A stretch of 10,206 nt of DNA, from the NCBI GenBank assembly GCA_049700215.1, contig JBNAVT010000048.1, positions 1-10,206 of the forward strand, given 5' to 3'. The notes beneath the pieces were generated by a model that did not search any database, was not told the DNA's origin, and saw nothing but the letters and a program-made list of their open reading frames with translations. Position numbers and translations under genes: made by a program. This stretch comes from Thermoproteota archaeon (GTDB lineage: Archaea; Thermoproteota; EX4484-205; JAAOZP01). Of this stretch, positions 1 to 10,206 are shown one piece after another (positions within the stretch are counted from its first letter, which is position 1; each line of letters begins with the position of its first letter).

Positions 1-278
1 AGGCTCCTCCCGTCCCAGCTTAGCCTGAAGTCCTCAATCCTCCCGGGAAGATCTTCGGTTATGCTTAGAACCCCAGGCCCAGTGTTTTCTAAGACGAGTT
101 TTTTAACACTAGTCTCGCCTTTAATCGTTGACAGCGAGAGCCTCAACCCTTCGCGGGTTCTTCTCAAAACTATTTTTAAAGTGTTGCCTGGAATGCTTAC
201 TTCAGCCTCACCCGGCTCCAGTTTCTCCAAGAGGAGCGTATTCTCCTTCTCCAAATAAACGCAGCTAGGCCCCTCCAT
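1..278 (-). CDS. hypothetical protein, N-terminal part (runs off the left edge)
   Basis: Not in the ORF track. Hand translation from ATG at 278 gives 92 open codons to the edge (MEGPSCVYLEKENTLLLEKLEPGEAEVSIPGNTLKIVLRRTREGLRLSLSTIKGETSVKKLVLENTGPGVLSITEDLPGRIEDFRLSWDGRS...). Host-like codon use (GAG/AAG/AGG). Divergent from the gene at 341. No family recognised. Confidence 0.6.
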   Translation of the reverse strand, partial: MEGPSCVYLEKENTLLLEKLEPGEAEVSIPGNTLKIVLRRTREGLRLSLSTIKGETSVKKLVLENTGPGVLSITEDLPGRIEDFRLSWDGRS

Positions 279-313
279 GTCCCTCTAAAAAGGTTATGAG
301 TTTGAGATAAGTG

Positions 314-319
314 TTTAAA
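314..319 (+). promoter_or_regulatory. putative TATA box for the phosphodiesterase gene
   Basis: TTTAAA about 22-27 nt upstream of ATG 341, the spacing typical of leaderless archaeal transcripts. Supports 341 rather than 311 as the start. Confidence 0.45.
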
Positions 320-340
320 GGGGGAATTCTTATTCTTCAC

Positions 341-1630
341 ATGCCAACCGTCTGGGAGAACGCGGTTGAGGAGCTTCGGCTGAGAAGAATAACCGACGGC
401 CTGTTCATCCCAGGGTACGACGGCTTCGCCCTCTCAAACTTATCCAACAGCCTCATGAAGCTTATGGGTGCTAAGCCCCCTGGGAGAAGGCTTAGCAACG
501 ATTTTCTAACAGACTTCAAAAACGCTAGCAAGATTGTTCTACTAGTCATAGATGCGATGGGGCTTAACGTCTTTGAAAAGGCTTCTGAAGGGCTTAAACG
601 CTTCCTAAACGGTTTGTTCGCGAAAAGAGGCATCCCCGTAAGGGCTTTAACATCCGTCTTTCCGTCGACAACCTCGGCTGCACTGACGAGCCTCAACACT
701 GGGTTAAGCCCTCAGGAGCACGGCGTAGTGGCTTACACGCTCTTCATGAAGGAACTCGGCTCAATGGTTAACATGATTTCCCTAAGCCCTGTTAACGATG
801 AGAGGAGGAACAGGATTTTCGAGCTCGGCATGGACGCTGAAAGGATACTTGGAGTAAAGGTTCTGACGGAGAAGCTTTGGGAAGCAGGGGTTGAATCCAA
901 AACCATAATTAGGTACGGCATAAGGAACAGCGGTCTTTCGACACTGATCTACAAGGGTTCTAAGATAGTCCCCGCCTTAACCAGCGTGGATTTCGCTATA
1001 AACCTCGCTAGGCTCATAAACGATAGGACCACGGGATTCATAGTAGCCTACTGGGATAGTTTCGACGGCCAGTCGCATTACTATGGGCCGTTCAGCACTG
1101 AGGCTGAGCTCGAGCTCCTAAACACCCTGACCCTTGTAAGAGAAGCCTTCAGCAGGGTTAAGCCAGATGCTGCCAGGGAGACGCTCCTCGTGATGACTTC
1201 AGACCACGGCCAGTCAAGGGTTAGGGACGACAAGTCGATCAGGCTTAACAGTTTAAAATGGCTTAAAGATTCCCTCGTAATGCCCCCCGCCGGCGAGTCC
1301 AGGGCAGCCTACCTGTATCTCAAGAAGGGTGTTGAAGGGTTTGAGAGAAAGTTCCGCAGGGAGACTCGAGGCATCTCTCTGTTTAAATCCAGCATGCTGC
1401 TGGATAAAGGTGTTTTCGGAACAGGCGGGGTGAAGCCATGTGTACCAGACAGGATTGGAGACTATACTGCACTTTCTAAGGACGAGAGCAGACTCGTGTT
1501 CCACTACGATTTGAAGGAGAGAATGGAGCCGGAGTTCGTAAGAGCGGGGGCACACGGCTCACTAACGCTGGATGAGCTTTTAGTGCCATTCATCGCGTGC
1601 AGGCTTTCAAGCCTCTCGGAGCATGGCTAA
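341..1630 (+). CDS. alkaline phosphatase superfamily protein (type I phosphodiesterase / nucleotide pyrophosphatase-like)
   Basis: Motifs LLVIDAMG, TSVFPSTTSAALTSLNTG (catalytic Thr), DGQSH, TSDHG and GAHGSLTLDELLVP give a complete two-metal site. ORF track start is GTG 311; ATG 341 preferred. Confidence 0.88.
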   Translation: MPTVWENAVEELRLRRITDGLFIPGYDGFALSNLSNSLMKLMGAKPPGRRLSNDFLTDFKNASKIVLLVIDAMGLNVFEKASEGLKRFLNGLFAKRGIPVRALTSVFPSTTSAALTSLNTGLSPQEHGVVAYTLFMKELGSMVNMISLSPVNDERRNRIFELGMDAERILGVKVLTEKLWEAGVESKTIIRYGIRNSGLSTLIYKGSKIVPALTSVDFAINLARLINDRTTGFIVAYWDSFDGQSHYYGPFSTEAELELLNTLTLVREAFSRVKPDAARETLLVMTSDHGQSRVRDDKSIRLNSLKWLKDSLVMPPAGESRAAYLYLKKGVEGFERKFRRETRGISLFKSSMLLDKGVFGTGGVKPCVPDRIGDYTALSKDESRLVFHYDLKERMEPEFVRAGAHGSLTLDELLVPFIACRLSSLSEHG

Positions 1631-1793
1631 GACATCAAGCCTCCCTAGCTGGGAACCAGTTGAAAAACATTTGGAGAAAGTATTCTTGAAAACAGTTGAA
1701 AAGGATTCTGGTTTAGATTATAACACACGCCAGCTGGTTTAGAGGTTTGATTCACCGGCTTTTAATCGCTAAGAAGGCTTATTCAGAGTACCC

Positions 1794-2207
1794 TTAATAC
1801 CTCCTCCTTGAACCACGGTTGAACCTTCTGCCGCCGTAGTACCCCCCTGAAACCTCTTTCTCAGACATGTTGTTGGAGGTGTCGACGCTTCCTATCTGGG
1901 CGTCGCTCTTCTCTATGGAACCATACTTACCCACGTTTAGCCTAAGGGTTCTTTGAAAAACTGTTACGTAACCGTTTTTAATCATTATAACGTCGTCCGG
2001 CTTAACTAGGTCGATGTTCTCATTCCAGAGGGTCAGCAGTATTGTCCCTGTTTCGTCACCGATCTTTGCTTCCGCAACCCTGTTCGTTGAGCCTCCGTAC
2101 CTAGATGCCACTTCTCTCGCTTCGGAGAGTGAGAGCACCTTGGCGAGAAGGTTTACGTGTTTGGAGTCGGTGTTAAGGTCTTTAACCTTAACAAGCTGCT
2201 CCGCCAC
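1794..2207 (-). CDS. ssb: single-stranded DNA-binding protein, crenarchaeal single OB-fold type
   Basis: KVKDL...VNLLAKV...VAEAKIGDETGTILLTLWN...IKNGYV...LRLNVGKYGSI matches Sulfolobus-type SSB, followed by a Gly/Arg-rich tail. GTG start with purine-rich GGAGATGAG upstream. Confidence 0.92.
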   Translation of the reverse strand: MAEQLVKVKDLNTDSKHVNLLAKVLSLSEAREVASRYGGSTNRVAEAKIGDETGTILLTLWNENIDLVKPDDVIMIKNGYVTVFQRTLRLNVGKYGSIEKSDAQIGSVDTSNNMSEKEVSGGYYGGRRFNRGSRRRY

Positions 2208-2240
2208 TTCTTCTCATCTCCGCAAATCCATTCCTAAGGC

Positions 2241-2258
2241 TATATTTAACCTTTCCCC
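2241..2258 (-). promoter_or_regulatory. BRE-TATA promoter for ssb
   Basis: Minus strand reads GGGGAAAGG-TTAAATATA, a purine-rich BRE next to a TATA box, upstream of the GTG at 2207. Confidence 0.6.
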
Positions 2259-2263
2259 CTTTG

Positions 2264-2277
2264 GAAAAGCTTATCTT
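2264..2277 (+). promoter_or_regulatory. putative BRE-TATA promoter for the first Lrp/AsnC-domain gene
   Basis: GAAAAG-CTTATCTT ends about 26 nt before ATG 2303 and is back-to-back with the ssb promoter. Confidence 0.45.
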
Positions 2278-2302
2278 GAGACACGCATCATTCTAACATA
2301 CT

Positions 2303-2536
2303 ATGGAGGCAGTAATACTCGTAAGGGTTTCAAGCAGCTTCCAAGGCAACATTGGAAAAGTCCTTCAAATAAAAGGGGTGAAAAAGGTTTACGAGTTGAC
2401 GGGAGACATAGACCTCCTCGTCGAGGTTGAAGCACCTTCTGAAGTGGAACTTAGGAGGATAGTCGACGAGATCCTTAGCGTTAAAGGCGTGGAATCGACT
2501 GACACTCGCATAGTATTGTCACACATCGTCAAATAG
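2303..2536 (+). CDS. stand-alone Lrp/AsnC ligand-binding (RAM) domain protein, copy 1
   Basis: 77 aa with the pattern AVILVRV...IKGVKKVYELTGDIDLLVEV...IVDEILSVKGVESTDTRIVL. No HTH domain. Confidence 0.88.
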   Translation: MEAVILVRVSSSFQGNIGKVLQIKGVKKVYELTGDIDLLVEVEAPSEVELRRIVDEILSVKGVESTDTRIVLSHIVK

Positions 2537-2577
2537 GAAAAACATATATGGCTGCTTGCACTTCGTGAACCCTAGGA

Positions 2578-2823
2578 ATGCAGGCTTTCGTACTCGCTAA
2601 AATAGGTAAGGGGTTTGACAGGGAGAAGGTTATGGAGAAGCTTCTTAGCATCGATGAGGTTAGAGAGGTTATGGAGTTGACAGGAGACATAGACCTGCTG
2701 GTTAGGGTCGACGTGCTCGACGTCGAGAGGCTTATGAAGACGGTTTTAAAAATTAGAAGCGTGGAAACCATTGTTACGACGGATACTCGCGTAGTACTCT
2801 CGGTTGAGCGGGCTAAGGTTTAA
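2578..2823 (+). CDS. stand-alone Lrp/AsnC ligand-binding (RAM) domain protein, copy 2
   Basis: 81 aa: AFVLAKI...IDEVREVMELTGDIDLLVRV...KIRSVETIVTTDTRVVL. Paralog of 2303-2536, no HTH domain. Confidence 0.88.
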   Translation: MQAFVLAKIGKGFDREKVMEKLLSIDEVREVMELTGDIDLLVRVDVLDVERLMKTVLKIRSVETIVTTDTRVVLSVERAKV

Positions 2824-2834
2824 AACCTTTCCCC
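2815..2834. promoter_or_regulatory. 15-bp palindrome overlapping a TATA-like element upstream of the HAD gene
   Basis: AAGGTTT-A-AAACCTT (2815-2829) is a perfect 7-bp inverted repeat containing TTTAAAA about 30 nt before ATG 2856. The minus strand also reads as BRE-TATA (GGGGAAAGG-TTTTAAA). Confidence 0.45.
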
Positions 2835-2855
2835 AATGCTGGCTATGCGACTCAG

Positions 2856-3527
2856 ATGATTGAAGCAGTACTGTTCGACTTGGACGGGACCCTTATAGAG
2901 TTCAACTATGATCTTGGTTCAGCCAGGACGATAGGTATAGCTAAGCTGTTGGAAATGGGTGTTGACAGGAGGATCCTCTCGGAATCTAAGCCTATCGCTA
3001 TAAACATTGAGGACGCGGTTGAATTCATGAGGAGAAAGGGCTTGAGTGAAGATGAGTTGAAATTCTTGAGGAGGAAGGTCTATGAGGCTGTGGAGGCTTT
3101 GGAGCTTAGGGCTGCTGAGAAACCGGTTGCTAGGAACGGTGTTTCAGAACTTCTTTCATGGCTTAAAGAGCGTGAAGTCAAGACAGCGGTCTGCACCAAC
3201 AATTGCAGGAAGGCGGTTGAAATAGTTCTTGAAAAAACAGGCTTGAAAAAATTTTTCAACGATGTTTTCACGAGAAACGATGTTGACAGGCTTAAGCCTT
3301 TCCCAGACCTTATCCTTAAGGCTTGTGAAAAACTCGGTGTCCATCCTTGGGAAACCGTCCACGTGGGAGACTCCCCTATAGATATTGAGGCCGCTGTGAA
3401 AGCCGGAGTTAAGCCGATAGGGATGGTTTCCAGCCTCAGCAGTGCTGAAAGGCTCAGAGACGCTGGTGCAGAGACCGTGGCTTTAAACCCGTATGAGCTT
3501 AGGGAGCTCCTGTCCGCTTGGATTTAG
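2856..3527 (+). CDS. HAD-superfamily hydrolase (phosphoglycolate phosphatase-like)
   Basis: Motif I FDLDGT, motif II CTNN, motif III KPFPD, motif IV VGDSPIDI. Substrate not predictable. Confidence 0.9.
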   Translation: MIEAVLFDLDGTLIEFNYDLGSARTIGIAKLLEMGVDRRILSESKPIAINIEDAVEFMRRKGLSEDELKFLRRKVYEAVEALELRAAEKPVARNGVSELLSWLKEREVKTAVCTNNCRKAVEIVLEKTGLKKFFNDVFTRNDVDRLKPFPDLILKACEKLGVHPWETVHVGDSPIDIEAAVKAGVKPIGMVSSLSSAERLRDAGAETVALNPYELRELLSAWI

Positions 3528-3536
3528 CATGCCATA

Positions 3537-3551
3537 GAAAAATATTATATA
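3537..3551 (+). promoter_or_regulatory. BRE-TATA promoter for the Ino1-like gene
   Basis: GAAAAA-TATTATATA ends about 23 nt before ATG 3574 (leaderless spacing). Confidence 0.6.
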
Positions 3552-3573
3552 CTAGTAAAATAGCTTTTTATTC

Positions 3574-4629
3574 ATGGCGGGCAGGCGAATAAGAGTCGCG
3601 ATCATAGGAGTGGGAAACTGCGCCTCAGCAGTCATACAAGGCCTATACTACTACTCTACAAACCCTGAGAAGGAGGGGTTGTGGCACCCCGTCGTCGGAG
3701 GCTATAGAGTCAGCGATATTGAGATCGCTGCAGCCGTAGACATAGACGCTAGGAAGGTTGGGAAAGATGTTTCTGAAGCAGTTTTCTCAGAGCCCAACAC
3801 TTTTGAGAAACACTTCGCAATACCCAAGACCGGTGTCGTGGTGGAGGGTGGGCTACTGGAGGATGAGCTAAACCCGTATCTCGCCTCCACGGTTAAACCC
3901 GTGAAACAGGATAGGGGGAGTATAGTCGAATACTTGAGGGAAAACCGTGTGGAAATAGCTTTAAACATGATTTCCAGCGGTCTCAACAATTCTTCCCTAG
4001 CGTATGCTGAGGCGGCGTGCGAGGCTGGGGCAAGCTTCGTGAACACTACTCCGACGATCATCGCTACAAACCCTGTTGTGATTGAAAGATTCAGGGGGAG
4101 GAGGCTCGTAGTGGTTGGGGACGATCTTATGAGCCAGCTTGGTGGAACAGCCTTCCACAGAGGGCTTGTAGCACTTCTAAAGTCCAGGGGGATTAAGCCG
4201 GTTAAAAGTTATCAGCTTGACGTGGGAGGAGGGCTGGAGACTTTGAACACGATGCACGAGGACCTTAGAGATTTCAAGAAGCAGATTAAAACATCATCCA
4301 TAGTTGAGGAGGCGGAGGAGGGCTGGGAAGTGGTTTCCGGAACAACAGACTACGTTGACTTCCTTAGGAACAATAGGGTTACCTACCTCCAGTTTAACGC
4401 TACGGGCTTCATGGGCGGCGGCTTCACCGTAAACGTTAGCCTTAGGTCTAACGACGGGCTTAACGCGGGAAACATAATACTGGATGTTGTGAGGGCTGTT
4501 GCAAAGGCCATGGAAGACGGGCTTAGCGGGAACGTCGGCGAGATCTCCAACTACGGTTTCAAGAAGACGCTTGAGAGGAAAAGGCTTGCTGAAGCCACCG
4601 CTGTATTCCAGTCTAAATACTGCGGCTGA
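3574..4629 (+). CDS. myo-inositol-1-phosphate synthase family protein (divergent paralog)
   Basis: Rossmann motif VAIIGVGNCASA, then DIDARKVGKDVSEAVF, FVN, GDD..SQLGGT and YQL.VGG, matching the bacterial/archaeal Ino1 layout. Several active-site motifs deviate (see findings), so no gene symbol is given. Confidence 0.85.
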   Translation: MAGRRIRVAIIGVGNCASAVIQGLYYYSTNPEKEGLWHPVVGGYRVSDIEIAAAVDIDARKVGKDVSEAVFSEPNTFEKHFAIPKTGVVVEGGLLEDELNPYLASTVKPVKQDRGSIVEYLRENRVEIALNMISSGLNNSSLAYAEAACEAGASFVNTTPTIIATNPVVIERFRGRRLVVVGDDLMSQLGGTAFHRGLVALLKSRGIKPVKSYQLDVGGGLETLNTMHEDLRDFKKQIKTSSIVEEAEEGWEVVSGTTDYVDFLRNNRVTYLQFNATGFMGGGFTVNVSLRSNDGLNAGNIILDVVRAVAKAMEDGLSGNVGEISNYGFKKTLERKRLAEATAVFQSKYCG

Positions 4630-4908
4630 CTAGTCTTTCTCAGCGATAAGCCTAAGGTCCAGTGATTTATCGCCCAGCCTAATGACCTCTATCCCAATTA
4701 TTTTCAGGCTTATTTTAAGATCCTTAGACCTAACCATCATCCTCTTGGGGTTTGAGGGCGAAACCTCCTTAGCCTCCTTAAGGAAAACGCTGAGAGGGAT
4801 GAGCTCGTCACCCCACTCCACCGCCTTAGTTGGAGAAGGATCTCCGACCTCGTGGAGCATAAGGGTTAACTCAACCTCGTACTCTCCCCCAGCCCATCTT
4901 TTAAACAT
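4630..4908 (-). CDS. hypothetical protein (92 aa)
   Basis: ATG 10 nt downstream of the DUF123 stop on the same strand. Its stop abuts the Ino1-like stop. Plausible globular composition, no family recognised. Confidence 0.6.
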   Translation of the reverse strand: MFKRWAGGEYEVELTLMLHEVGDPSPTKAVEWGDELIPLSVFLKEAKEVSPSNPKRMMVRSKDLKISLKIIGIEVIRLGDKSLDLRLIAEKD

Positions 4909-4918
4909 GCGTTTAACA

Positions 4919-5380
4919 CTACGACGGGCTTATTAAAGCCTCTGGGTTGAAAATCCTAAACCGTATACCGCTCCTCCTCAATCCGCACGCTATTCTTTCA
5001 ACAGTCTTCCTTGCACCCTCATTGGAAGACAGAAGGTGTGAGAAATCACTCGGGGAGTCGGTTGCCCCAAACCCTTTAACCACCTTAACGAAGCCAAGGG
5101 AGGGAAGCATGCGTGCAAGCCTAGACTCCCCATGTCGAAGGGGAGCATAGATGATGCTTTTAACCTCGACAGTCCTGAGCCTCGTTAAATAGTCAATGTG
5201 CCACCTAGCCTTCTTACGCTTCCTTAGGTGTCTAAAAACCCTTTTCTCAAAGCCACCTGGACCCATGGCGGAGCCTACGTAAACATAGCAGCCGGGGGGA
5301 AGCCTGACCCTTGGGAGAGAACCCGGTTTAAAACATGTGCCTCTCTCGACTGAAATAACAAGAATATAGGTTCCTTTCAA
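4919..5380 (-). CDS. DUF123 / GIY-YIG (Uri superfamily) endonuclease
   Basis: KGTYIL...[20 protein letters not shown]...WHIDYL...E...GFGATD...SHL. Start moved from 5386 to TTG 5380 because GGTGG (5391-5387) is then a correctly spaced SD sequence. Confidence 0.85.
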
Positions 5381-5422
5381 AAACAACCACCTGAATCAGA
5401 ATGCTTAAGAAACTCCAAGCTG

Positions 5423-5998
5423 ATGAGAAAAGTGTTGGCGAACGAGAGGAATAGGGAGCAGCAGCTCGACCCTGAGAGACTCAGGATGATAGAGGTTGCT
5501 GCAAACCCGCATAGGATTAGGATAATTATGGAGCTGCTGAACAGGGAGGGCACAGCGGCGTCGCTCTCCAAAGCCCTAGGATACTCCAGGCAGCTCGTAG
5601 ACCACCATCTGGAAACATTGGAGAGAAGCAGGCTAGTGTTGAGAAGAAAGGTTGGAAACGTCGAGATGTATAATGCTACGGAGGCTGCGAGAGCGATAGT
5701 CACGGAAATACTGAGGATGCATTCTGAAATAGGAAGAGCTGAGGAAGGCGAGACAGTGACAGTGACGCATCCTGGAGCCGGGGGAACAGGGGAAGGCGAG
5801 AAGGCTGCAAAGGTTAAGCATGCGGCTATTGGTTTAAGACCTAGGAGGCTCATACCCCTAGTCATAGGAATCTCAACAATACTCGTAGCATCCGCTGAAG
5901 CGATCCGTGCAGGAGTCTACACCTATATTCTCGGAGGAGTCCTGCTCGGCATTCTTCTCTACGCGGGGGCTTCAATGCTCATCCGGCTTCTAGAATAG
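5423..5998 (+). CDS. ArsR-like winged-helix regulator with C-terminal transmembrane hairpin
   Basis: [13 protein letters not shown]...[29 protein letters not shown]...VEMY is an ArsR-type wHTH. A G/E/T-rich linker is followed by two hydrophobic segments ([16 protein letters not shown]; [23 protein letters not shown]). Exact start uncertain (5423/5432/5435/5486). Confidence 0.78.
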
Positions 5999-6773
5999 TA
6001 CATTCAACACCGGCCTCACCCCTTATCATGCGGCTTAAAGCACCCGGACGGGTCAGATTCCCTATCAAAACTCTGACACCTCTTTCAGTAGCGTAAAAAC
6101 CCTCCTCAATCTTCCTGTAGATCCCCCCGGTGACGTCGCCCGGCCTAAGCGAGGCTGTGAGGCCCGGCATCATGCTCCTCCTCAAACGCGGAATCAGGCT
6201 TGCACCAGGGTCAAGCCTAGGGTCGCCTGTGAAGACGCCGTCCACATCAGTCCCGTAGACAAGCTTAAAGGCGCCGAGCTTAACGGCGAGAAACGAGGCC
6301 AACTGGTCCCCGGAAACTATTGTAAACCTTTTCTCAGAAGAATCCATAGCAATGTCTCCTGGGATTAGTGGCACGAGGCCTAGGCTGAGCATCATTTTCA
6401 GCGGCTCAGTGAAAAAGCTTTCTATCCTTCCCGACGAGCAGGTTAAGCAGCTGACAGGAGTCACCGGTACTGCTGGAACACCGTGTGAAGCGAGGCTCGC
6501 GAGAATGAGCTGGGTCAGCTCGTTCATCCTTAGCTTAACCTTCGACAGCCCTATGAGCTGGCCTGGTTGAAGATAACCCTCGGCTACACGATACTCTGAA
6601 GCAACCACGTGCCCGTATGAGCCTCCGCCGTGAACAAGAATAAGATTATAATCCTGGAGGAGCTCTGAAACCTGTTTCGAAACCTGCTCTATCACAGGAG
6701 TGTTAGGCGTGAAGGGCTCATCTTTCCTGGTCACCACGCTTCCCCCTAGCTTAACAATCACCAGAGGCCTCAT
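5979..6773 (-). CDS. ipk: isopentenyl phosphate kinase (amino acid kinase family; archaeal mevalonate pathway)
   Basis: [19 protein letters not shown] (IPK-signature His), PGD, SGD, TDVDGVF and DVTGGI..K motifs. Lies 3 nt downstream of a prenyltransferase gene. Confidence 0.9.
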
Positions 6774-6776
6774 TTT

Positions 6777-7805
6777 TCACTTGTTCCTGTAAACAACGTA
6801 GTCGGCAAGCTCGAACAAGAGCCTCTTAGCCCTTGAATCCGGGAGAACGCTGAGCATTGACTTAGCCTTCTCCGAGAAAAGCCAGGCTTCCCTCACAGCA
6901 TTCTCCCTCACACCCGTCCTAGCCAGGATGCTTAAAGCCTCGTCTAAATCCTCCTGGGAAACCTGTTTACTCCTTAAAACACTCAGGAAAAACCTTTTGC
7001 TCTCACCATCCATCCTCTCAAGCCCCCGGAGTATCAGCATGTTCCCAAGCTTATGCTCCAAAACGTCTTTCCCAACCTGCTTACCTGTTTCAGAGGCCGA
7101 GCCGAACAAGTCTAGAAGATCGTCTACAATCTGGAAGGAGACGCCCAGGTTTAAGCCGAACACCCTAAACGCTTCAACAACCGTGTCGCCAGCACCGGCT
7201 TCCACAGCACCCATCATCGCACTCGCCTCGTAGAGGGAAGAAGTCTTTCGGACAACCATGTCAACATAGTCGTCGAAGCTCACGTTCAGCCTCCTGTGCT
7301 CAGCAACATACGGGTCGTCCTCCCTCCCAACCTGTTCGAAGAGAACATCCAGACGCTCACCCTCGACAAGCCTCATAACGTAATGGTCAACAATGGAGAG
7401 AAGCCTGCCAGCATTCCTAGACCTAAGCAAGAGCTCTGAAACAACCTCCCTGTACTGGACAGCGGCGAGAAGAGCCATTGTTAAACCATATTTTTTCCAG
7501 AGGGTTGGCCTACTCCTCCTGACTTCACCGTGGTCTATGATATCGTCTATTATCAGGGTATAGTTGTGGATGAGCTCTATGGCTGCTGCAGCGTTCAAAG
7601 CATTCTCAGGATTCCCGCCGGCGGCTTCGCAGGAGAGCATCAATACTGCCGGCCTAATTCTCTTGCCGCCCGCTTTAACAGGGTAAAGCAATACTTCTTG
7701 AAACTCTGGTGAAGCGTTCTCCGAAAGCGCGTCGTAAATCACTGGTTCAACACTCCTAGCTATTTCGTCAAGCACTTCCGCGAGATCCTGATCCTCTCTC
7801 AACAT
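6777..7805 (-). CDS. trans-prenyl diphosphate synthase (GGPP/GFPP synthase; resembles the Aeropyrum geranylfarnesyl-PP synthase clade)
   Basis: GGKRIRP, FARM YTLIIDDIID....RR, KT, SARM FQIVDDLLD and GKQVGKD motifs. Operonic with ipk. Confidence 0.92.
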   Translation of the reverse strand: MLREDQDLAEVLDEIARSVEPVIYDALSENASPEFQEVLLYPVKAGGKRIRPAVLMLSCEAAGGNPENALNAAAAIELIHNYTLIIDDIIDHGEVRRSRPTLWKKYGLTMALLAAVQYREVVSELLLRSRNAGRLLSIVDHYVMRLVEGERLDVLFEQVGREDDPYVAEHRRLNVSFDDYVDMVVRKTSSLYEASAMMGAVEAGAGDTVVEAFRVFGLNLGVSFQIVDDLLDLFGSASETGKQVGKDVLEHKLGNMLILRGLERMDGESKRFFLSVLRSKQVSQEDLDEALSILARTGVRENAVREAWLFSEKAKSMLSVLPDSRAKRLLFELADYVVYRNK

Positions 7806-7825: not shown

Positions 7826-7840
7826 TATATAAAACTCTTA
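7826..7840 (-). promoter_or_regulatory. BRE-TATA promoter of the prenyltransferase-ipk operon
   Basis: Minus strand TAAGAG-TTTTATATA, TATA box about 21-29 nt upstream of ATG 7805. Confidence 0.6.
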
Positions 7841-8040
7841 ACCAGCTAAGCTTTTATTCCCGGCTCAATTGCTGATGAATAGCACACGCTCTCCTGGGGA
7901 TGTAAGCAGAATAATAAATAAGGTTTCAAATTAAAAAGGTTGATACCATTAAAACATGGTGAGAGGAAGCCTCGAATTTGGACTTGAATAGTGCACGCTA
8001 AAAGGATGTTGTAAAGGTGCTTGGGAAAAGAATTTGTTTT

Positions 8041-8709
8041 TCACGTCTTGCGCCTGCGTTGCTTCTCGACGGTCAGACCGATGCTAACTAAGTATTCATT
8101 CATCATCTCTTCGTTTTCAAACATCTTCGCGGCCTCAAACATTCCCTCGGCCCTTCTGAGGATCTCGCTAATCTTCAGCTCCTCATTCATCCTCTTGGAG
8201 TCAAAGGTTGTAAAGAAGCCGGATTCGGTATCTATCTCAAATCTAACTTCAAAGCCGTACTTATTACCTATTCTCCTAGCTATCTCATCTCCCCACATGT
8301 GTTTCCTCGTATAATAGGAAATAATACCTTTAGCGTTTAGATATTTCTCGAATTCCCTCTGCTTGAAATCCTTAACTATCATCTCAGCTTCCTCAATCCC
8401 CCTTTGCCAAATCATCCTCTTCTCCTTTTCCGTCTTTGCTGCCCTTTCTTTGTACCTATATTTCTTGGGATAGAGATAGAACTCTAATATTTCAGACCTG
8501 GTGCGCTCTGGGCTCGTCACGAATTTAACCCTTCCATCCTCATGCTCTTCGATGTAGACACTGAGGGCACGGGGATACCAAAGCATTATCCTCCACTTCC
8601 AATGATATGCAAAAGGCATGTCCAAACTAATGAATCTGGGCTCGAGCTTTAGTCTCTCCATCAGCAGGTTCCTCAACTTCTCAGCCGTGCTCAATTTCTC
8701 ATCCCCCAA
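8041..8709 (-). CDS. hypothetical soluble protein, candidate immunity protein
   Basis: 222-aa open frame rich in K/E/R and aromatic residues, with no transmembrane segment or signal peptide. Low GC. Coupled to the upstream stop. True start may be TTG 8694, after the SD-like GGGGGATGA. The immunity role is inferred from position only. Confidence 0.7.
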   Translation of the reverse strand: MGDEKLSTAEKLRNLLMERLKLEPRFISLDMPFAYHWKWRIMLWYPRALSVYIEEHEDGRVKFVTSPERTRSEILEFYLYPKKYRYKERAAKTEKEKRMIWQRGIEEAEMIVKDFKQREFEKYLNAKGIISYYTRKHMWGDEIARRIGNKYGFEVRFEIDTESGFFTTFDSKRMNEELKISEILRRAEGMFEAAKMFENEEMMNEYLVSIGLTVEKQRRRKT

Positions 8710-9049
8710 GTCCGAGCTCAGACCTCGTATATGCTTCTATCTTTATCTCTATGCGCTCGCTCGGCCACCCGGCGAGAACATCCACGGGTTTATACCGGAA
8801 TCCTATCGCTATGCCGTACTGAACATTTTTATAATCATCAAGTTGCATGTGATTCTTAAGGTCTTTTATTGCTTCACCCAATAGATCTTCCAAGCTTTTG
8901 TTTTTTTCTTTAAGCATCGTTGACCCTATCTCTATTACCGCAATATCCTCGCCCTTCTTAAACACCACTCTGTCACCCACTACAATATCCTTTACTGCAG
9001 AGATCACACCATCAACTTCCCCAGTTCCACTAATGTGCTTGAATTCCAC
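8699..9049 (-). CDS. PD-(D/E)xK restriction-endonuclease-like domain, candidate toxin tip (probably an N-truncated or frameshifted fragment)
   Basis: GEVDGVI (PD-like strand), IAVIEIGST (ExK-like, K replaced by G), helix LGEAIKDLKNH, then strands YGIAIGF and IKIEAY. The frame is open only up to 9055 (in-frame TAG at 9058-9056). Confidence 0.5.
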   Translation of the reverse strand: MEFKHISGTGEVDGVISAVKDIVVGDRVVFKKGEDIAVIEIGSTMLKEKNKSLEDLLGEAIKDLKNHMQLDDYKNVQYGIAIGFRYKPVDVLAGWPSERIEIKIEAYTRSELGLGG

Positions 9050-9050
9050 C

Positions 9051-10206
9051 TTATCCTACCCTGAGACCCGCCACCGGGCTATTATCGTGGGCCCAGAAGG
9101 CCCTAATGTTGACGTTTCCGCTGCTCCTCTCCGCGGAGATTTTAATGTGGGTGAAGACCAGGGTCAGCTTGGGCAGCATGGTTGCAAGCTCAATCTCATC
9201 GTTTCTATTCTTGGAGGAGAATCCAACTTTTCTAGAGACGTTCAATTCTTGGAAAGCCTTCACCGTGGCATAGCCGGTTTCAACACCACCCCTAATCCTC
9301 TCCGTTACCCAGCCGCTTGAAGTATAGTAGCTTATGGTCTGGTTGAACGTTATTTTTGAGCCGCTGTTAGTCCACATCTCCGAGCCTATGAGCGTTCCTC
9401 CAACAACCCTAGTGTCCCTTTTAATCTCTGTGACGAGGTATCTGGCTGAGGTGAACCCAACCTCGTCGCCATTGCTAATCGCGACAGCGATCCTGCGAAC
9501 CCCAGATTCCCCGGAGCCCTCGTCGTAAGCAGAATCTATGGCGTAGCCCTCGCCGACACTGACAGATGGAACATGCTCGCCCACTTTAATCACGACCGGG
9601 CTTGTGAAAACCCAGCAGTCCCTGTTAACACCTTTGAGAACTGCTCTCTGAACGCTTCCGGGCACTCCACAACCTTTTTTCTCAATGCCTTTCCATACTG
9701 TCCTCCAGCTCATGTTCCTAACCCCACTGACCTGGGGGAGCCTGAACACTAAGGTATGTGTCGCATCCCCGTCCAAGGCTGCTTCAGCTGTGTGGGATTC
9801 CGCGTTTATCGCCCCGCCTCCCTCGAGCCTTATGTCTATCGCAGCATACCCTATGGTGAACGTGTCGCTCGTCGTCCTGTTAGTCCATACGGAGGCGTGG
9901 ATTAAAAGCTTAACCTCATGCGTCCCAGGACCTAGGGTCGCAGCCCTTGAATAGCAGCTTGGCCACCAGTAGCCCGTGAGCTCGTAGACCTTAACATTGT
10001 CGACATAAACCCTAAGATACTTGTTGAAGACACGCCAGCAGTTATCGTAGGGGGGAGTCTGGGGATTACGGTCGTCACCACAAACGTAAACCCCTGCGGA
10101 AACGCCATCGGGTATCGTAACGGTTGCGATGCACTCCTTCCAATCGCTGTAGGTGCCGGGGCCACTCGTAGGGATGCTGAGGTATCCTGTCCCGCCGTAC
10201 CATGCT
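9051..10206 (-). CDS. large beta-rich, probably extracellular or surface protein, C-terminal part (runs off the right edge)
   Basis: The frame of the track ORF 9051..9776 stays open to 10205 (384 codons; added part AWYGGTGYLSIPTSGPGTYSDWKECIATVTIPDGVSAGVYVCGDD...YLRVYVDNVKVYELTGYWWPSCYSRAATLGPGTHEVKLLIH...). Rich in T/S/G/V/W/Y with 6 Cys. YVD...LGPGTHEVKL is typical of beta-sandwich domains. Confidence 0.75.
   Translation of the reverse strand, partial: AWYGGTGYLSIPTSGPGTYSDWKECIATVTIPDGVSAGVYVCGDDRNPQTPPYDNCWRVFNKYLRVYVDNVKVYELTGYWWPSCYSRAATLGPGTHEVKLLIHASVWTNRTTSDTFTIGYAAIDIRLEGGGAINAESHTAEAALDGDATHTLVFRLPQVSGVRNMSWRTVWKGIEKKGCGVPGSVQRAVLKGVNRDCWVFTSPVVIKVGEHVPSVSVGEGYAIDSAYDEGSGESGVRRIAVAISNGDEVGFTSARYLVTEIKRDTRVVGGTLIGSEMWTNSGSKITFNQTISYYTSSGWVTERIRGGVETGYATVKAFQELNVSRKVGFSSKNRNDEIELATMLPKLTLVFTHIKISAERSSGNVNIRAFWAHDNSPVAGLRVG

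Follow-up and report, generated by a model that had tools for sequence, protein, structure and literature searches.

An orphan toxin-domain fragment and its partner gene as a candidate cassette of a polymorphic-toxin-like system in Brockarchaeota-type archaea

Do three closely packed genes at the end of a short archaeal contig encode a polymorphic toxin and its immunity protein? The stretch of DNA analyzed here, referred to as the window, is the entire 10,206-bp contig C48 (JBNAVT010000048.1) of genome G000, a Thermoproteota assembly of 2.09 Mb in 85 contigs. Homologues of the proteins of the window stem from metagenome-assembled genomes (MAGs) labelled Candidatus Brockarchaeota, Thermoproteota and similar names. 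An initial annotation had read positions 8041-10206 as one toxin-immunity locus, in which a beta-rich stalk carries a nuclease-like tip and is followed by a coupled immunity gene. Our analysis favors a different answer. Positions 8041-9049 are on balance best explained, with fair but not strong confidence, as an orphan cassette, consisting of a toxin-domain fragment and its cognate inhibitor gene, of a polymorphic-toxin-like system of Brockarchaeota-type archaea from hot springs, and the stalk belongs to another gene family. Contigs of G000 are cited below as C10 and the like, and loci as L052 and the like.

Arrangement of the three reading frames and the stalk-tip joint

The three co-oriented minus-strand frames are present and as tightly packed as originally described. 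ORF 1, designated the stalk, lies at 9051-10205 (-) and encodes 384 aa, remaining open at the contig end. ORF 2, designated the tip, lies at 8699-9049 (-) and encodes 116 aa from a GTG codon, with a stop-to-stop length of 118 codons, and ORF 3, designated the partner, lies at 8041-8709 (-) and encodes 222 aa if translation begins at TTG 8709 and 217 aa if it begins at TTG 8694. The stalk stop (TAA, 9051-9053) and the tip GTG at 9049 are separated by 1 nt, and the partner starts 11 nt before or 4 nt after the tip stop at 8699-8701 (-11/+4 nt). The stalk and tip frames differ, and two codons above its GTG the tip frame runs into a TAG (9056-9058), so these are two ORFs and not one protein. The GC content is 0.537 in the stalk, 0.439 in the tip and 0.447 in the partner, and the fall occurs at the joint. 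Searches of the stalk, tip and partner proteins against Pfam, NCBIfam and PADLOC returned no match at a meaningful score, and PHROGs returned weak matches only, all of unknown function.

DNA homology and GC content place a recombination joint between stalk DNA and tip DNA at 9053-9060 (-), an interval that holds both the TAG at 9056-9058 and the TAA at 9051-9053. DNA homology to the stalk copies on C84 and C81 and in L114 ends at ...CAGGGTA, at about position 9057, and homology to the tip family ("DKV") starts at GAT AAG GTG. The joint reads ...CAGGGTAG up to the break and GATAAGGTG... beyond it; the stalk is another gene family, and the joint is a REARRANGEMENT. When a 191-nt probe across the joint was compared with the 17 genomes of the genus, all 14 non-self matches covered the stalk side only, starting at query positions 94-117 (window 9053 or higher), and the joint was found in 0 of the 16 other genomes.

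The stalk frame is a truncated gene of a secreted "stalk-type" protein (9051-10206, minus strand), as indicated by the ORF, its paralogues and its homologues, and its N-terminus is lost at the contig end. Paralogues with 85% DNA identity are present on C84 and C81, N-terminal pieces on C69 and C64, and distant relatives on C18 (a 1178-aa protein) and C1. The protein database yielded 41 homologues, mostly of 480-526 aa, to which the window gene is 60-86% identical, and it held no full-length version of the window stalk at >=90% identity; from a metagenome scan for the window stalk locus, two distant loci were all that emerged. Members of the stalk family begin with a signal-like segment. In 26/26 homologues that bear the anchor motif, exactly 50 residues follow that motif (the regular expression used to detect it missed 14 of 40 homologues). 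In the window 2 residues follow, the last 48 being replaced by Gly and a stop. In C84, C81 and five relatives, the stalk stop overlaps the start of a gene for a 2340-2445-aa protein, and no such giant gene follows the stalk in the window. At their C-termini, these giants have the D...E-x-K/E domain of the tip family (hhalign probability 93.6% against the tip profile). The genes downstream of them belong to the partner family (L114 and L119, and L117 at 98.9%) or are small and unrelated. In this second, related giant-protein operon, the stalk-type gene comes first and is accessory. A candidate homology between the stalk and a gene of about 400 aa upstream of the 1600-aa proteins described below was rejected (hhalign probability 1.4%).

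These observations bear on the view that a beta-rich stalk carries the tip, which is not supported: the 26 motif-bearing homologues end at one fixed point without a variable tip, an outcome that the initial annotation had itself named as refuting its reading, the stalk is a separate secreted protein encoded before a 2340-2445-aa gene, and the true tip carriers, of 1580-1613 aa, are unrelated to it. It is accordingly hardly credible that stalk and tip form a single polymorphic toxin, be it directly or by way of a +1 shift at GGA-TAA-G that would fuse the frames, to which the 222-aa protein would confer immunity. The 1-nt distance between stalk stop and tip start, the fact that a +1 slip at the stop enters the tip frame, and the signal-like segment of the stalk family would suit such a toxin. 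Against it stand the differing frames and the closing TAG, the fixed end of the stalk homologues, the absence of the joint from the 16 other genomes, the unrelated carriers of this tip type, and a tip fragment that lacks both the first third of its domain and the K/E residue.

How the joint arose can be narrowed. An internal deletion of a stalk-giant-partner operon was considered and is unsupported, the window tip being 47-59% identical to the tips of the 1600-aa family and to orphan tips; the tips of the stalk-following giants escaped tblastn and were recognizable only when profiles were compared. One inversion involving a stalk gene and an orphan cassette divergent from it, as in L053, would yield the arrangement of the window. 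The reciprocal joint, with the stalk tail beside the 5' part of a tip, was not found in genome G000, which is 94.6% complete. In L053 (G014:C15, 6279-9322), an orphan bigC-tip-partner cassette lies divergent from an adjoining stalk-giant operon, and its tip is the closest relative of the window tip (58.9%).

The joint might also be an artefact of metagenome assembly at repeated genes, the tip-partner cassette truly residing elsewhere, and we regard this as very improbable. The stalk gene is indeed repeated and breaks the assembly, as C84, C81, C69 and C64 all end inside copies of it, and the truncated stalk protein occurs on this contig only, while ORFs identical to the 116-aa tip and to the 217-aa partner also lie on a second, independent contig of 182,562 bp. 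The tip side, however, is unique in the genome, its next best paralogue in G000 having 31% amino acid identity; with only the stalk side repeated, there is no common repeat at which mis-joining could occur. The independent assembly also calls the identical 116-aa ORF, which needs the same or a nearby upstream stop. Moreover, other chimeric junctions of the gene family exist, such as an aspartokinase-like N-terminus joined to a big-protein fragment on C10. That 958-aa ORF (C10:347-3223), in which the amino-acid-kinase-type N-terminus is followed by a fragment 66% identical to the N-terminal part of a 1620-aa protein, is a second chimeric junction of the big-protein gene family within G000.

The tip domain, its carriers and its partner

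The tip ORF (8699-9049, minus strand) was characterized by profile and alignment as an orphan 3' fragment of 116 aa from a restriction-endonuclease-like C-terminal domain. It spans positions 62-172 of the 177-position domain profile and, judged by this alignment, corresponds to the final two-thirds of a C-terminal domain some 175 aa long. The proposal of a PD-(D/E)xK domain of about 118 aa is supported as to the restriction-endonuclease-like family, but only part of the core is present.

Full-length versions were found within the same genome and in relatives. By tblastn, partner paralogues are located on seven other contigs of G000, with a weak tip match just upstream on C4. Large ORFs lie upstream of the partner paralogues on C10, C28, C4 and C57, and their last ~150 residues align with the tip; the big protein of C10 has 1620 aa and a hydrophobic N-terminus. 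In L051, L052 and L062, from the same genus, proteins of 1580, 1613 and 1594 aa, respectively, end in a tip-type domain. Over the first 850 aa of the C10 protein they are 58-74% identical to it, their C-terminal domains are 48-55% identical to the window tip, and a partner homologue (35-51%) follows directly, so that tblastn and ORF maps give the gene order bigN-bigM-bigC-tip-partner at all three loci. Orphan tip versions occur in L053, L054, L056-L058, L060, L061 and L063, and identity between the window tip and the full-length and orphan copies of relatives is 47-59%. Genome G000 has 10 tip-domain ORFs.

When the domain profile was compared with 1.84 billion representative proteins, 75 matches were obtained at E <= 0.001. 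In the single-stretch matches of >=300 aa (about 23), the domain lies at the extreme C-terminus, many of the 75 are fragments of 55-190 aa, and all cluster members that bear a name are recorded as "hypothetical protein" from MAGs of Brockarchaeota or Thermoproteota. The tip fragments in the database include about 28 short ones, of which 7 begin at profile positions 57-69, compared with 62 in the window, a pattern that start-codon calling and contig ends could also yield. It is suggestive that the fragment starts just past the most conserved stretch, S-E-K-T-G-I-P-x3-L, which may be a preferred crossover point for cassette exchange.

In the alignment of 19 domains, one Asp and one Glu are invariant (19/19), the Glu standing within I-A-I-x-E-x-K/E. 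The position two residues after this Glu is occupied by Lys in 10/10 sequences of the other, C10-like clades, and in the 9 window-type sequences by Glu (7), Lys (1) or Gly (1), the Gly being that of the window (E-I-G). A Glu in the upstream helix (G-x-x-G-E-x-I) is kept in most sequences and replaced in 3 of the 17 that bear the helix (L062, L045 and L010). The window tip lacks the N-terminal helices, including the one with the conserved Glu, and keeps the invariant Asp and Glu; the PD-(D/E)xK catalytic signature of helix Glu, Asp and (D/E)-x-K is therefore incomplete in the window copy. Missing its first helix and having Gly at the K/E position, the tip fragment is presumably inactive. An incomplete tip in which Gly takes the catalytic Lys/Glu position, fused to a stalk gene that is itself truncated, points to a remnant and not to a working toxin locus.

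The fold of the domain was assessed with an AlphaFold2 model of the 175-aa L052 domain, built on the 19-domain alignment (pLDDT 93.3, pTM 0.88). The model consists of a helix (20-37), a strand (67-71), Asp79 followed by a strand (80-84), a hairpin (88-96), a strand with Glu106 and Glu108 (101-110), a helix (116-131) and two strands (141-148 and 164-169). The order helix-strand-strand-strand-helix-strand is that of the restriction-endonuclease (PD-(D/E)xK) core. Foldseek searches of the PDB with this model gave no match at E <= 0.001; the weak top rows were CinB (the top row, non-significant), SPARDA, NucC, MGME1, SwaI and similar nucleases. In a wide search with VIA-align, which is independent of Foldseek, the top Z was 6.2 (LHK-Exo, 3syy; rmsd 3.4 over 106 aligned residues), followed by 6.0 (3ijm, "restriction endonuclease-like fold"), 5.8 (a phage exonuclease and an HsdR fragment), 5.1 (PaqCI), 5.0 (MspI) and 4.9 (Hjc). 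Of the 50 rows listed, 30 had titles that name a nuclease, restriction enzyme or resolvase, and six were clearly other things. Because these Z values lie under the caution line of the tool, which is 8, the fold assignment rests on topology, motif placement and the consistency of the list taken together. Pfam PDDEXK_9 gave sub-threshold matches in 4 of the 19 domain members (best E 4.1e-4), PDB sequence searches with the domain and partner profiles gave chance-level rows only, and the nearest protein-atlas feature neighbours of the domain were HSDR_N_2 and Hjc at 0.88-0.89, which serves as a lead only. The modelled topology and motifs support membership of the tip in a restriction-endonuclease-like domain family.

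A non-toxic role was weighed on the same residues. Giant surface or membrane proteins could use the domain for DNA binding or as a structural module, in processes such as DNA uptake or exchange between cells, with the partner acting as a chaperone or assembly factor instead of an inhibitor. The E-x-E of 7/9 window-type sequences, the replaced first-helix Glu of L062, L045 and L010, and the lack of a sequence match to any described toxin family are compatible with this idea. We nevertheless judge it quite unlikely, as the Asp and Glu are invariant in 19/19 sequences and the Lys is kept in 10/10 sequences of the other clades, and as arrays of fragments plus partners and the exchange of cassettes are hard to explain for an assembly factor.

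The partner gene (8041-8709, minus strand) was identified from its ORF, alignment and co-occurrence as an intact "immunity-like" gene whose product has no signal peptide. All five family-invariant residues are present. In six relatives a conserved ATG overlaps the stop of the tip; in the window this ATG is shifted by 2 nt relative to the frame, so translation of the partner must start at TTG. The window partner is probably functional. The 217-222-aa product, initially described as an orphan with a start coupled to the tip stop, is no orphan. Its family comprises 12 clusters at 90% identity in a database of 5.8 billion proteins, the window's own cluster included, and 14 ORFs in G000 itself (9 full-length and 5 partial). 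It occurs in 16/16 other genomes of the genus and in 1/6 of a neighbouring family, and no copy was found in the other 38 genomes searched. Up to 13 matches are found per genome of the genus, including stop-bearing pieces and tandem copies such as those in G005:C22 and G006:C54.

The linkage between tip and partner that the initial annotation had proposed was borne out. A partner-family gene lies directly downstream of 8/10 tip-domain ORFs in G000, with gaps of -3 to +5 nt in most pairs, and an array on C1 consists of a big protein, a partner, a 65-aa tip fragment and a further partner. Over 18 pairs, the identity matrices of tip and partner co-vary (r = 0.92), a value reached by 0/2000 Mantel permutations.

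Complex prediction for the L052 domain with its own partner gave a score of 0.60 (runs 0.74, 0.03 and 0.60), which passes the mark of the tool, compared with 0.01 for the best of 3 controls, and the L052 runs showed >=75% contact agreement and partner pLDDT >= 81. The mark used in this assay was reached by 116/157 solved complexes and 2/215 mismatched pairs, and scores <= 0.60 were seen in 18/157 solved complexes and in both passing mismatches; these calibration counts hold only roughly here, as the L052 run used custom alignments. The protein atlas held no usable match to the partner, and the stored partner model has a pLDDT of 0.47. On the reading preferred here, the partner would bind and block window-type nuclease tips.

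Other small proteins follow big proteins of this kind. One family ("...GNFF.K..E..RKY..V.F.F") is found on C40 (L122:1479-4204), as three to four tandem paralogues that resemble a multi-immunity array, and on C85 (L120:5182-5913), and is unrelated to the window partner family (hhalign 6.9%). Another, of 246-254 aa (N-terminus ...RKRF..S..YLR..DFFQDY...), lies convergent, just past the 3' end of giant or big genes with tips ending ...LDKII...NLNY, and recurs beside stalk loci. Its members are at L116:10126-10866, L118:10252-10992, L120 (C85 of G000):1784-2539 and C10:5327-6091, with further sites at C69:644-964, C1:28376-28708 and L053:9591-9989. These proteins have no Pfam match, show no relation to those of the partner family (hhalign 0.1%) and may represent a third type of partner, unusual in its orientation. 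Pfam searches of the other C-termini and the other partner families were empty.

Topology of the carriers and the possible mode of action

Six full-length big proteins (L008, L051, L052, L062, L121 and L123) were compared. All six start with a hydrophobic segment, a putative export signal. Within the first ~750 aa, N-x-S/T sequons number 9-17 against 2.7-4.3 expected (P <= 0.011 in 6/6 proteins), a 2-4x over-representation. The 690-785 aa after the hydrophobic segments are charged and Ser/Thr-poor and hold 0-1 sequons against 1.8-4.1 expected (3 observed and about 17 expected over the six related proteins). A hydrophobic hairpin lies near residues 750-800 in 6/6 proteins, and 4/6 have an extra segment at 897-970. 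The split in sequons may mark which part of the big protein faces the glycosylation machinery.

The carriers are mosaic. The C10 and L052 proteins are 65-86% identical up to residue ~1060 and 26-33% identical over the last 200, and L052 and L062 are 15-43% identical at 780-1110 and 76-82% identical at 1160-1450. In 6/6 full loci the partner gene has a lower GC content (0.415-0.459) than the N-terminal part (0.470-0.532), and in 5/6 the tip GC is also below that of the N-terminal part.

Conserved N-termini with divergent tips, co-variation of tip and partner, orphan fragments and tandem partner arrays fit a polymorphic-toxin-like system, one that is restricted to MAGs of the Brockarchaeota type. 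The intact loci of relatives encode a protein of 1580-1680 aa with a putative signal peptide and a sequon-rich N-terminal ectodomain of ~750 aa, followed by two or three hydrophobic segments, a region of ~650 aa and a PD-(D/E)xK-like domain of ~175 aa at the end, and a gene for a cytoplasmic protein of ~220 aa adjoins the carrier gene, overlapping it or lying 4-5 nt away. The giant carrier, exported or membrane-anchored, would present a DNase-type tip, the full-length proteins acting as inter-cellular DNases, and the cytoplasmic partner would bind and block the cognate tip. The N-terminal parts would be common to loci, with tip and partner swapped jointly as a lower-GC cassette via recombination. 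Truncated tip fragments with full partner genes, and tandem partners, build up elsewhere in the genomes, where decayed cassettes may be kept because the partner guards against the tips of neighbours, serves as a recombination reserve, or both. The window would hold one such cassette, and at ~9057 it adjoins a stalk-type gene from which the last 48 codons and the giant gene downstream are missing. The wider family shows hallmarks of the proposed polymorphic toxin-immunity system, but the locus that suggested it is a remnant fused by rearrangement.

The same topology could be read in the opposite sense. The giants might be membrane sensors with a glycosylated part outside the cell, i.e. receptor-coupled intracellular effectors. 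Their C-terminal nuclease would sit in the cytoplasm of the producer, kept inactive by the partner until virus attack or contact with non-kin releases it, and would serve self/non-self recognition or abortive infection. What remains in the window would in that case be a dead piece of an effector and a spare antitoxin. An odd number of hydrophobic segments is possible in 4/6 proteins (the hairpin at 750-800 plus the third at 897-970), the post-membrane 690-785 aa have the charged, Ser/Thr-poor, sequon-poor character given above (0-1 sequons, compared with 9-17 in the ectodomain), the partner has no signal peptide, and the defence nucleases SPARDA and NucC are among the weak top Foldseek rows. 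We think this reading unlikely. Orphan partners, tandem partner arrays and truncated cassettes are the classic footprint of defence against incoming toxins, and orphan or tandem partner genes have no obvious use for a purely internal effector. In addition, 2/6 proteins show the two-segment hairpin only, which would place the C-terminus outside; the post-membrane sequons fall below the shuffled expectation, which is unexpected for a cytoplasmic region under no selection; and no PADLOC model matched the three window proteins.

A broader proposal is that these genes form an undescribed conflict system, with at least 10 genes of 4-7 kb per 2-Mb Brockarchaeota-type genome encoding membrane-anchored giants with exchangeable restriction-endonuclease-like tips, an inhibitor for each tip drawn from at least three unrelated families, and new specificities gained when low-GC cassettes are swapped in from orphan stores like that of the window. 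In its boldest form, the nuclease stays on or inside the membrane of the producer as a contact- or virus-triggered self/non-self switch and is not a secreted toxin. This proposal is tentative, and we would not yet adopt it.

Several points weigh against the orphan-cassette reading that we prefer. The adjacency of stalk and tip is documented by this one contig, the only record of the truncated stalk protein. The best structural Z (6.2) remains below the caution line, with Foldseek empty at its threshold. Although Pfam contains Tox-REase models, neither these nor any other Pfam toxin model matched the window proteins, four big proteins or the 19 domains at E <= 1. With E-x-E in place of E-x-K in most of the window-type clade, even its full-length domains may not be standard nucleases; E-x-E is an active variant known from BamHI. 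The window partner gene, having lost the conserved ATG, may be decaying too. Co-variation of adjoining genes is expected from linkage alone, and many loci were fetched with the partner as query, so that only the own-genome count of 8/10 is unbiased. One of the three complex runs scored 0.03, and the tool rates the pass as "weak support". Finally, the nuclease end could be cytoplasmic in the producer, at odds with an exported toxin; alternatively, the C-terminal part may be exported yet kept free of glycans.

Genomic context, known systems and significance

Ordinary genes occupy window positions 1-7805 and encode a phosphodiesterase, an SSB-like OB fold protein, two RAM-domain proteins, a HAD hydrolase, inositol-1-phosphate synthase, a DUF123 protein, an ArsR-type regulator, an amino-acid-kinase-fold protein and a polyprenyl synthetase. 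The RAM-domain genes, at 2303-2536 and 2578-2823 (+), adjoin each other and encode stand-alone Lrp/AsnC ligand-binding domains of 77 and 81 aa without a DNA-binding domain.

Between these genes and the partner gene lies a lineage-specific, AT-rich spacer (7856-8040, no strand assigned; GC 0.384), delimited by blastn and GC content, and no second copy of it was found elsewhere in G000. Homology with the intergenic DNA between the polyprenyl synthetase (GGPPS) and PFK genes of relatives (blastn, L143 and L144) stops at about 7855, and the segment from ~7856 onward is absent at the syntenic site in 7/7 relatives examined, in 6 of which GGPPS is back to back with PFK-HypF. The PFK-HypF genes of G000 are located on C10. 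Window positions 7831-7855 and C10 positions ~21194-21222 both carry ~26 bp of the GGPPS-PFK intergenic region of relatives, with exact matches of 11 bp and 13 bp. This piece may have been duplicated at the breakpoint when an insertion or rearrangement delivered the cassette.

The family was compared with systems already described. Polymorphic toxin systems, as their defining features are set out by Zhang et al. 2012 (PMC3482391) and exemplified by CDI/CdiA-CT and Rhs, are known from bacteria and a small number of archaea. They are similar in having a large protein that begins with an export signal and ends in a toxin-type domain, conserved N-terminal parts with differing tips, a partner gene immediately downstream, standalone truncated tip cassettes with a partner, and multi-copy partner loci. 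In the family described here, a putative export signal is found at all six hydrophobic N-termini and not in the window copy, which has no carrier. The C-terminal toxin-type domain is variable, its variants being divergent forms of one fold, and orphan cassettes and multi-immunity loci are represented by the window, the C1 array, the orphans of relatives and the tandem partners. The differences are equally clear: carriers of the Brockarchaeota type have internal hydrophobic segments, the tips found so far are of one fold, and the partner family is new. Pfam detected no RHS, filamentous-haemagglutinin, VENN, LXG/WXG, HINT or PrsW elements and no known secretion-system genes, and the full-length proteins have no Pfam domains of the FHA or RHS/YD repeats of CDI and Rhs. 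In place of the VENN or PxxxxDPxGL boundary motif of those systems, the boundary here is S-E-K-T-G-I-P-x3-L. Judged from sequence, the organization matches that of polymorphic toxin systems without their known carrier, processing, toxin or immunity families.

The nuclease-like domain shares its order of elements, the helix Glu, the Asp before strand 2 and the E-x-K in strand 3 with nucleases of the restriction-endonuclease fold (Tox-REase-1 to -10, Hjc, HsdR-N and the lambda-exonuclease type), and its G-x-x-x-E ... D ... E-x-K motif resembles that of Tox-REase-7 as tabulated in PMC3482391. It differs from them in having no Pfam model at threshold, a Z of 6.2 or less, E-x-E in 7/9 sequences of the window-type clade and, in most members, a beta-hairpin inserted between strands 2 and 3. 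Like colicin E DNase/Im, barnase-barstar and Wolbachia CinB/CinA, it is a nuclease domain beside a small cytoplasmic protein that is predicted to bind it (score 0.60); unlike those pairs, to which it has no sequence or significant structural relation, the nuclease is the end of a giant membrane-associated protein.

VARTIG of Thermococcales, as described in Makarova et al. 2021 (PMC8416519), is an archaeal, lineage-restricted, multi-copy module in which a large secreted protein has a shuffled C-terminal part and variable downstream genes. Both modules are hypervariable, shuffled by recombination and uncharacterized. In that description, the variable part of VARTIG is an Ig domain with no nuclease or toxin domain, whereas the variable end of the present family is nuclease-like and has its own partner, and Pfam detected no Ig-type domain. 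In the same 2021 account, archaeal polymorphic toxin systems are given as uncharacterized, their prediction dating from 2019; as presented there and in PMC3482391, they are known almost only from predictions and are rare or bacterial-like. The literature covered on Brockarchaeota toxins and archaeal polymorphic toxins contains no description of this family; that coverage did not extend to a 2019 survey in mBio, which may list related arCOGs. This article, by Makarova et al., is reportedly the main survey of archaeal polymorphic toxins.

For annotation, the three ORFs of the window should be read as a stalk gene in truncated form, a pseudogene fragment of a toxin domain and an immunity-like gene left as an orphan. 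The locus in the window is a remnant, and its interest lies in the family that it reveals, for which it is a clear example of how orphan cassettes and chimeric junctions arise. Through it a self-contained archaeal family comes into view, in which the nuclease-domain clade, the immunity-like partners and the giant carriers are all new. The family is plentiful in a single genus and nearly missing outside it (75 matches among 1.84 billion representatives). The locus also supplies concrete protein pairs for the study of toxin-immunity biology in thermophilic archaea.

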